A stretch of 26,384 nucleotides of DNA, taken from Escherichia coli (GTDB lineage: Bacteria; Pseudomonadota; Gammaproteobacteria; Enterobacterales; Enterobacteriaceae). A program made the translations under genes and the position numbers. This document shows positions 24,215 through 24,579 of the stretch, in pieces. The stretch is from the NCBI RefSeq assembly GCF_003334765.1, contig NZ_QOWT01000044.1. The stretch is one strand, 5' to 3'. The stretch's first letter is position 1; every line of letters starts with the position of its first letter. The notes under the pieces were generated by a model. The model did no database searches. It was not told where the DNA came from and saw only the letters and a program-made list of their open reading frames with translations.

Positions 24215-24243
24215 AACCCCGTCCTGTACGGGGTTTGTTTTTT
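24215..24243 (+). terminator. pssA intrinsic terminator
   Basis: AACCCCGT (24215-24222) / ACGGGGTT (24228-24235) stem with 5-nt loop, followed by TGTTTTTT. Confidence 0.75.
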
Positions 24244-24255
24244 GGAGGCCACGTT

Positions 24256-24579
24256 TTGCGTATTCTTTTTGTCTGTTCGCTATTGTTACTTTCTGGATGC
24301 AGCCATATGGCTAACGATAGCTGGAGCGGGCAGGATAAAGCTCAACACTTTATCGCCTCGGCGATGCTTTCCGCCGCCGGAAATGAATATTCACAGCATC
24401 AGGGGATGAGCCGGGATCGCAGTGCCATGTTTGGATTGATGTTCTCTGTCAGTTTGGGGGCGTCAAAAGAGCTTTGGGATAGCCGCCCCGAAGGGAGCGG
24501 CTGGAGCTGGAAGGATTTGGCCTGGGATGTCGCCGGTGCAAGCACCGGCTATACCGTCTGGCAACTGACCCGTCACTAA
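24256..24579 (+). CDS. yfiM: Lipoprotein YfiM
   Basis: 107-aa protein [21 protein letters not shown]... with lipobox LSGC; TTG start with GGAGG 7 nt upstream; stop overlaps the convergent kgtP by 4 nt. Confidence 0.85.

Follow-up and report, generated by a model that had tools for sequence, protein, structure and literature searches.

This locus raises the question of how yfiM, a lipoprotein gene whose Shine-Dalgarno (SD) sequence adjoins the T-tract of the pssA terminator, comes to be transcribed. We addressed it in a 26,384-nucleotide stretch of Escherichia coli DNA (the window, whose numbering is used throughout), in related loci of other species, and in published RNA data. We consider it likely, with a probability of roughly 0.7, that yfiM is a promoter-less distal cistron of pssA and is fed by read-through of a conserved, leaky terminator. 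A literature search found no paper on yfiM transcription and no explicit account of the conserved terminator that abuts the yfiM SD, of its covariation, or of the start codon argument given below.

Gene order and the yfiM start codon

A 1-kb query around the pssA-yfiM junction found a match in all 5,426 complete E. coli genomes, with 100% identity to K-12 derivatives, and the window is E. coli K-12-like. Subtracting 2,699,872 from an MG1655 (NC_000913.3) coordinate gives the window coordinate. An earlier note made from the sequence had named the genes pssA, yfiM, and kgtP, and these names are those of RefSeq MG1655; two further E. coli genomes carry annotation identical to MG1655 at pssA-yfiM-kgtP. 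RefSeq already records where the genes begin and end, the TTG of yfiM included, as well as the 4-nt overlap. The genes and the signals of yfiM are as follows.

22855 to 24210, + strand: pssA coding sequence (CDS; phosphatidylserine synthase), stop TAA at 24208 to 24210; from the ORF list and RefSeq (b2585, 2722727..2724082)
24244 to 24248, + strand: Shine-Dalgarno GGAGG, starting at the first base after the T-tract, 7 nt before the start; read in the sequence
24256 to 24258, + strand: yfiM start codon TTG; from RefSeq, homologous codons, and the rejection of upstream alternatives
24256 to 24579, + strand: yfiM CDS, 107 aa, stop TAA at 24577 to 24579; RefSeq b2586, 2724128..2724451
24289 to 24300, + strand: lipobox L-S-G-C, residues 12 to 15, from the translation; Cys15 is the predicted lipidated residue, with Ser at +2
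24576 to 24579, unstranded: tail-to-tail overlap of the yfiM and kgtP CDSs, 4 nt (CTAA); read in the sequence
24576 to 25874, - strand: kgtP CDS (alpha-ketoglutarate permease), convergent with yfiM; RefSeq b2587, 2724448..2725746, and the ORF list

The yfiM stop overlaps the convergent kgtP stop by 4 nt, as the earlier note had claimed; we read this in the sequence, and RefSeq gives the same limits. The kgtP stop TAG is the reverse complement of CTA at 24576 to 24578, and we found the same -4 overlap in most genera with kgtP downstream. At its other end, the kgtP frame is open for 96 nt upstream of the annotated start (25875 to 25970, minus strand), and the mechanical ORF has 464 aa from an ATG at 25970, versus 432 aa as annotated. 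MG1655 also has a tiny ORF, yfiS, on the opposite strand upstream of kgtP (window 26053 to 26115). A known riboswitch or small RNA at the locus was ruled out, as 5S rRNA was the sole family match in an Rfam search over 22600 to 26384.

We scanned one genome per species and found 80 loci with YfiM relatives, all in Enterobacteriaceae. The homologous start codon was ATG in 53 of them, GTG in 21, and TTG in 5, so that 74 of the 80 have ATG or GTG; TTG at this codon occurs in Escherichia only (5 loci plus the window). Of 78 related loci, 66 have an SD-like motif between 16 and 4 nt upstream of the start. In the window, the next in-frame ATG is codon 18, past the lipobox. Because the homologous codons are ATG or GTG, the signal peptide length is conserved, the SD spacing is good, and the next ATG comes too late for the lipobox, TTG at 24256 is the start of yfiM.

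It is very improbable that translation truly begins elsewhere, at an in-frame TTG at 24235, at the TTG at 24242 in the SD, or at the ATG of codon 18. Some database entries for YfiM relatives are 111 to 116 aa long, and in about 35 of the 80 loci the SD is overlapped by an in-frame ATG, GTG, or TTG situated 12 nt upstream of the start (T-ATG-GAG-G). In the window and K-12, however, a 2-nt TT insertion puts the TTG at 24242 out of frame, and the TTG at 24235 lies inside the hairpin base and T-tract, with no SD. Among the relatives, a shifted frame or an intervening stop disqualifies the upstream codon in six loci, and 37 loci lack any in-frame start upstream. A start at codon 18 would remove the conserved signal peptide and lipobox. 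The RefSeq start and the NCBIfam NF008028 equivalog, which aligns from residue 1, also go against another start. The comparison thus gives a clean argument for the TTG start that the earlier note and RefSeq assign, supported by the homologous codons and the lipobox position, and against the 111- to 116-aa gene calls in relatives. Those longer entries arise where some gene callers use the SD-overlapping upstream codon (L009 to L071). In Citrobacter, which has GTG as its main start and ATG upstream, there may be dual initiation.

The product looks like a lipoprotein, as the earlier note had it. YfiM has a short signal peptide and the lipobox pattern [LVI][ASTVI][GAS]C, and it scores 194.8 bits over residues 1 to 105 against NCBIfam NF008028 (YfiM family lipoprotein; cutoff, 117). 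The lipobox pattern was matched in 73 of the 80 relatives, the other 7 having the variants LCGC, LPGC, or LFGC, and its Cys is at residue 15 in 58 of the 80 loci. YfiM also matched Pfam PF10043 (DUF2279; E = 1.3e-9) and, weakly, VanZ (E = 0.0085), which fits the Lipocone superfamily. Burroughs et al. 2025 (PMC12419801) placed YfiM in that superfamily and proposed a role for it in modifying the serine head group that PssA makes. In a protein search for distant YfiM relatives, the matches listed (at least 120) were all from Enterobacteriaceae, with an identity of at least 70%.

Conservation of the pssA terminator

The earlier note had described a pssA terminator with a T-tract, at 24215 to 24243, directly before yfiM. 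It is present, as a hairpin and a T-rich tract.

24215 to 24235, + strand: terminator hairpin AACCCCGT-CCTGT-ACGGGGTT, 8 bp with 5 G-C pairs and a 5-nt loop; from a motif scan
24236 to 24243, + strand: T-rich tract TGTTTTTT; read in the sequence

The arrangement is that of an intrinsic terminator, a G+C-rich hairpin with a U-rich tract directly after it. The hairpin begins 4 nt past the pssA stop, and 6 nt separate the stop from the G-C core; counted from that core, the T tract starts at 24234 and is TTTGTTTTTT. Hairpin and tail together have a dG of -12.5 kcal/mol and a z score of -2.66, which is moderately unusual. Terminator-like motifs as such are not in excess, with 1 observed in 1.6 kb and 1.7 +/- 1.3 in shuffles. 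The motif in a single sequence is at chance level, and the reality of the terminator rests on its conservation.

We found pssA directly upstream of yfiM in 78 of the 80 loci. The terminator was counted in 79 loci, the 78 Enterobacteriaceae species representatives and the window, by a rule that requires a stem of 5 bp or more, closed by a G-C pair, with 6 or more T among the 8 nt that follow it. By this rule, 73 of the 79 have a stem and T-tract, which end 17 to 25 nt before the yfiM start. The spacer between pssA and yfiM measures 39 to 48 nt in 64 loci. The G-C core follows the pssA stop by 5 to 10 nt in 64 of the 73 loci, and the distance from stop to hairpin, 4 nt in the window, is 2 to 6 nt in most relatives.

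RNAalifold, run on a MAFFT alignment of 44 distinct spacers, recovered a 7-bp helix independently. In this alignment 99.3% of the cells are paired, and when the 3' partner was slid as a control, pairing fell to 33 to 71%. We observed 22 compensatory cells, compared with 6.8 +/- 2.0 in shuffles, and none of 500 shuffles reached the observed number. Judged from these comparisons, selection acts on the stem and the T-tract alike. Sequestration of GGAGG was considered and rejected: a fold of 24195 to 24275 pairs it with the last pssA codons, and the RNAalifold structure of the 44 spacers is without those pairs. We also rejected a main role as a bidirectional terminator for kgtP read-through; on the minus strand the hairpin is followed by only UUGUGAUU, and a Rho-dependent drop lies further on, at 23870.

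A few loci depart from this form. A Pluralibacter metagenome-assembled genome (L072) has a 26-nt spacer and no hairpin, Pluralibacter gergoviae (L065) has a 30-nt spacer and a weak stem, and Entomohabitans (L060) has the hairpin without a T-tract. These exceptions indicate that the two genes can adjoin without a terminator, which fits cotranscription of pssA and yfiM, and L072 in particular implies it. In the same direction, Burroughs et al. 2025 (PMC12419801) described trx-DTW-PatZ-PssA-YfiM as a conserved operon.

Spacers also vary in length and detail. The spacer is expanded to 210 nt in Citrobacter freundii M-21 (L039), where the terminator still adjoins pssA and yfiM comes 187 nt further on, and to 197 nt in Tenebrionibacter (L074); yfiM may have gained a promoter of its own in these two lineages. 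Within Escherichia the T-tract ranges from TTTGTTTTTT in K-12 and TTTGTTTT in E. coli GPEC1210 up to TTTGTTTTTTTT in E. whittamii, and the spacing from SD to start is 7 nt in K-12 and 5 nt in L004, L007, and L008. The T-tract and SD-spacer variants (L002, L004, L006, L007, and L008) should tune termination and initiation.

Transcription into yfiM

Published RNA data place a coverage step at the terminator. In DirectRNA-seq with and without bicyclomycin (BCM), Adams et al. 2021 (PMC7815308) found the best-scoring + strand step at 2724116, which is window 24244; it adjoins the end of the T-tract and was classed as the primary 3' end of pssA. The same data give 30 reads downstream of 24244 and 179 upstream, leaving about 17%, as counted in 800-nt windows that extend past yfiM by about 460 nt. 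This bounds the read-through fraction at roughly 17 to 40%, the upper value applying if all downstream reads of the 800-nt window lie within yfiM. We infer that this residual RNA is read-through. Inhibition of Rho by BCM raises coverage downstream of 24244 threefold (Rho score, 3.05; PMC7815308). The threefold effect is probably that of Rho stopping untranslated RNA beyond yfiM, antisense to kgtP, and not at the hairpin.

The hairpin might instead be mainly an RNA stability or processing element, with pssA and yfiM transcribed at equal rates; it would shield either the pssA mRNA at its 3' end, once Rho has terminated transcription downstream and the RNA has been trimmed, or a processed yfiM mRNA at its 5' end. 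Several observations fit this. The rise with BCM means that Rho acts somewhere downstream, the pssA terminator has no + strand 3' end in the Term-seq tables of Adams et al. 2021 (PMC7815308), and the kgtP 3' ends nearby look hairpin-trimmed, with no U-tract. However, a protective hairpin would not need a T-tract, and this one has a T-tract as conserved as its stem (73 of 79 loci have 6 or more T in the 8 nt after the core), which is the canonical form of an intrinsic terminator. The coverage step, moreover, coincides with the end of the T-tract, against a pure stability role. We regard this explanation as decidedly unlikely.

The SD follows the T-tract with no intervening base, and 20 nt lie between the end of the hairpin and TTG, so there can be no sigma-70-like promoter downstream of the terminator. 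A sigma-70 consensus scan of the + strand from 23709 to 24256 found no promoter-like site, and no usable -10 is placed so that transcription would begin between the hairpin and the SD. The earlier note was thus right that there is no room for a promoter between the terminator and yfiM. Its GGAGG is also present, although its wording, which began the site one nucleotide after the tract, should read that no base intervenes.

A promoter further upstream, in the 3' end of pssA, would start its transcript either upstream of the hairpin or within the 5' arm. The promoter scan covered sigma-70-like consensus sites and found 2 in 1.6 kb, with 2.1 +/- 1.6 in shuffles, so that such sites are no commoner than chance. 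One promoter-like site, with 9 of 12 matches, lies at 23680 to 23708. The only -10-like hexamer able to start a transcript inside the hairpin is the following.

24206 to 24211, + strand: TGTAAT, -10-like hexamer, weak; transcription start about 24218, in the 5' arm; -35 TCGACC with an 18-nt spacer

TGTAAT has 5 of 6 matches, with G at position 2 in place of the near-invariant A, and it is not conserved; relatives read TGTAAC, TGTAAA, TTTAAA, and TCTGAA. A conserved promoter embedded in pssA would constrain synonymous sites. Over the last 150 codons (450 nt) of pssA in 76 species, synonymous entropy was 0.95 to 1.68 (mean, 1.21) with no dip, which argues that this stretch holds no conserved promoter signal. 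The coverage data are compatible alike with read-through and with a second promoter, but the step falls at the end of the T-tract, as termination predicts. A promoter of its own for yfiM is therefore unlikely.

The earlier note had offered two routes to yfiM, read-through from pssA and a promoter inside the pssA coding region. The first is supported. The second is not a route around the terminator, since transcripts from an internal promoter would still need read-through unless they started in the 5' arm of the hairpin, in which case the terminator could not form. The short conserved spacer, the lack of an embedded promoter in the pssA 3' end, and the coverage step at 24244 together support read-through.

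According to this read-through model, polymerase coming from pssA would meet an intrinsic terminator that ends one base before the first base of the yfiM SD, and most transcripts would stop there. The fraction that reads through would carry GGAGG, the 7-nt spacer, and TTG and so could be translated into the 107-aa lipoprotein precursor. The terminator would in this way set a low YfiM:PssA ratio, and the TTG start and antisense RNA from the convergent, well-expressed kgtP would lower YfiM further. U-rich leaders can act as translational enhancers. The U-tract beside the SD may thus have a second role of this kind.

Antisense transcription and comparable terminators

The convergent gene reaches into yfiM.

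24481 to 24549, - strand: kgtP 3' UTR inside the yfiM CDS, folding into two hairpins (24549 to 24532 and 24502 to 24481)

Adams et al. 2021 (PMC7815308) found strong kgtP 3' ends by Term-seq at 2724397 and 2724366 on the minus strand (window 24525 and 24494) and classed them as antisense to yfiM. They lie 51 and 82 nt inside yfiM and adjoin the two stable minus-strand hairpins. In the same study (PMC7815308), RNA antisense to pssA shows a strong drop, dependent on Rho, at window 23870 (Rho score, 19), and therefore transcription from kgtP runs antisense through all of yfiM. Neither of the two hairpins has a U-tract, which suggests that the kgtP 3' ends are produced by trimming back after Rho-dependent termination near 23870. 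The kgtP 3' hairpins pair at 5.45 of 7 and 7.75 of 9 pairs across relatives, better than slid controls. We set this conservation aside as uninformative, as the hairpins lie on conserved peptide motifs (AGA[ST]TG and SRPxGSG).

The excludon concept is said to come from Sesto et al. 2013. We found overlapping transcripts of convergent neighbors at yfiM-kgtP, with the 4-nt CDS overlap, kgtP 3' ends within yfiM, and an entry in the excludome: ExcludonFinder (PMC12288877) lists the pair among 165 convergent excludons of E. coli MG1655. The pair is thus like other convergent excludons in being on the published list and in having one gene's 3' ends inside the other. It is unlike them in that the overlap goes beyond UTRs to include 4 nt of the CDSs, and mutual exclusion is putative here.

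Strain-engineering papers (EASY-edit and SamT) describe synthetic operons inserted in what they call the yfiM-kgtP intergenic region. We found no intergenic region there, as the CDSs overlap by 4 nt and the kgtP 3' UTR lies inside yfiM. Insertions at this junction, a popular synthetic-operon site, disrupt both the 4-nt overlap and the kgtP 3' UTR.

The classic leaky terminator is T1, between rpsU and dnaG in the rpsU-dnaG-rpoD operon, and dnaG has weak translation signals. Like the pssA terminator, T1 consists of a GC hairpin with a U-tract and lies in a short spacer between genes of one strand, and the downstream gene is promoter-less and lower expressed; the weak translation signals of dnaG have their counterpart in the TTG start of yfiM. 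Unlike T1, the pssA U-tract touches the downstream SD, with zero bases between, and the upstream stop is 4 nt from the hairpin. In addition, yfiM lies under antisense transcripts from a convergent gene, and its read-through is inferred.

A second case lies in the window, in the same five-gene string that Burroughs et al. describe as an operon. Between trxC and tapT, on the same strand (spacer region, 19283 to 19350; tapT start, 19351), a strong terminator-like hairpin at 19289 to 19309 (9 bp, 7 G-C pairs) begins 6 nt past the trxC stop and is followed by TTTTCTCCTC. As at pssA-yfiM, the terminator lies in a short same-strand spacer; in contrast to yfiM, the tapT start lies about 41 nt beyond the hairpin, a geometry that leaves room for a promoter.

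The short distance from the pssA stop to the hairpin brings in the ribosome. Li et al. 2016 (PMC4824070) moved a stop codon from 28 to 5 bp before the terminator tR2, and termination fell from about 90% to under 10%, as the ribosome blocks the hairpin. We found the pssA stop within a few nucleotides of its hairpin (4 nt to the stem and 6 nt to the core), which is in the low-termination range of the tR2 series. Those measurements were made on a plasmid reporter in which a 79-bp insulator preceded the downstream RBS, an arrangement unlike pssA-yfiM. Also unlike tR2 at 5 bp, the apparent coverage drop at the pssA terminator is still about 60 to 83%, so occlusion by the ribosome is at most partial here. 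The near-inactive terminators 5 bp from a translated stop (PMC4824070) sit uneasily with an apparent drop of about 80%.

By analogy with tR2, the short conserved distance from stop to hairpin suggests that pssA translation may modulate read-through. We put forward only tentatively, and think rather doubtful, a fuller version in which the terminator is gated by translation: the ribosome at the pssA stop codon would block the hairpin, yfiM would be transcribed only from closely co-translated pssA messages, and kgtP antisense would lower yfiM again when alpha-ketoglutarate transport is induced. MG1655 has a tiny ORF, pssL (window 22830 to 22871), that overlaps the pssA start. It hints at control of pssA by a leader peptide, and such control would act on any gating of read-through by translation. 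A literature search pairing pssA with pssL, or patZ with pssA, found unrelated papers only.

Leaky intra-operon terminators and convergent overlaps are well-known kinds of arrangement, and Li et al. 2016 (PMC4824070) state in general terms that leaky intra-operon terminators set the expression ratios of neighbors. The junction is otherwise a textbook-style leaky terminator with a convergent overlap and opens no long-standing question. With yfiM as a read-through cistron of pssA, the layout explains why weak yfiM expression is expected. It would also tie the dose of YfiM to pssA, which has some bearing on envelope lipid biology, as YfiM is proposed to act on the PssA product. If the terminator were gated by translation, the dose of a predicted lipid head-group (Lipocone) enzyme would be tied to the active synthesis of phosphatidylserine synthase.
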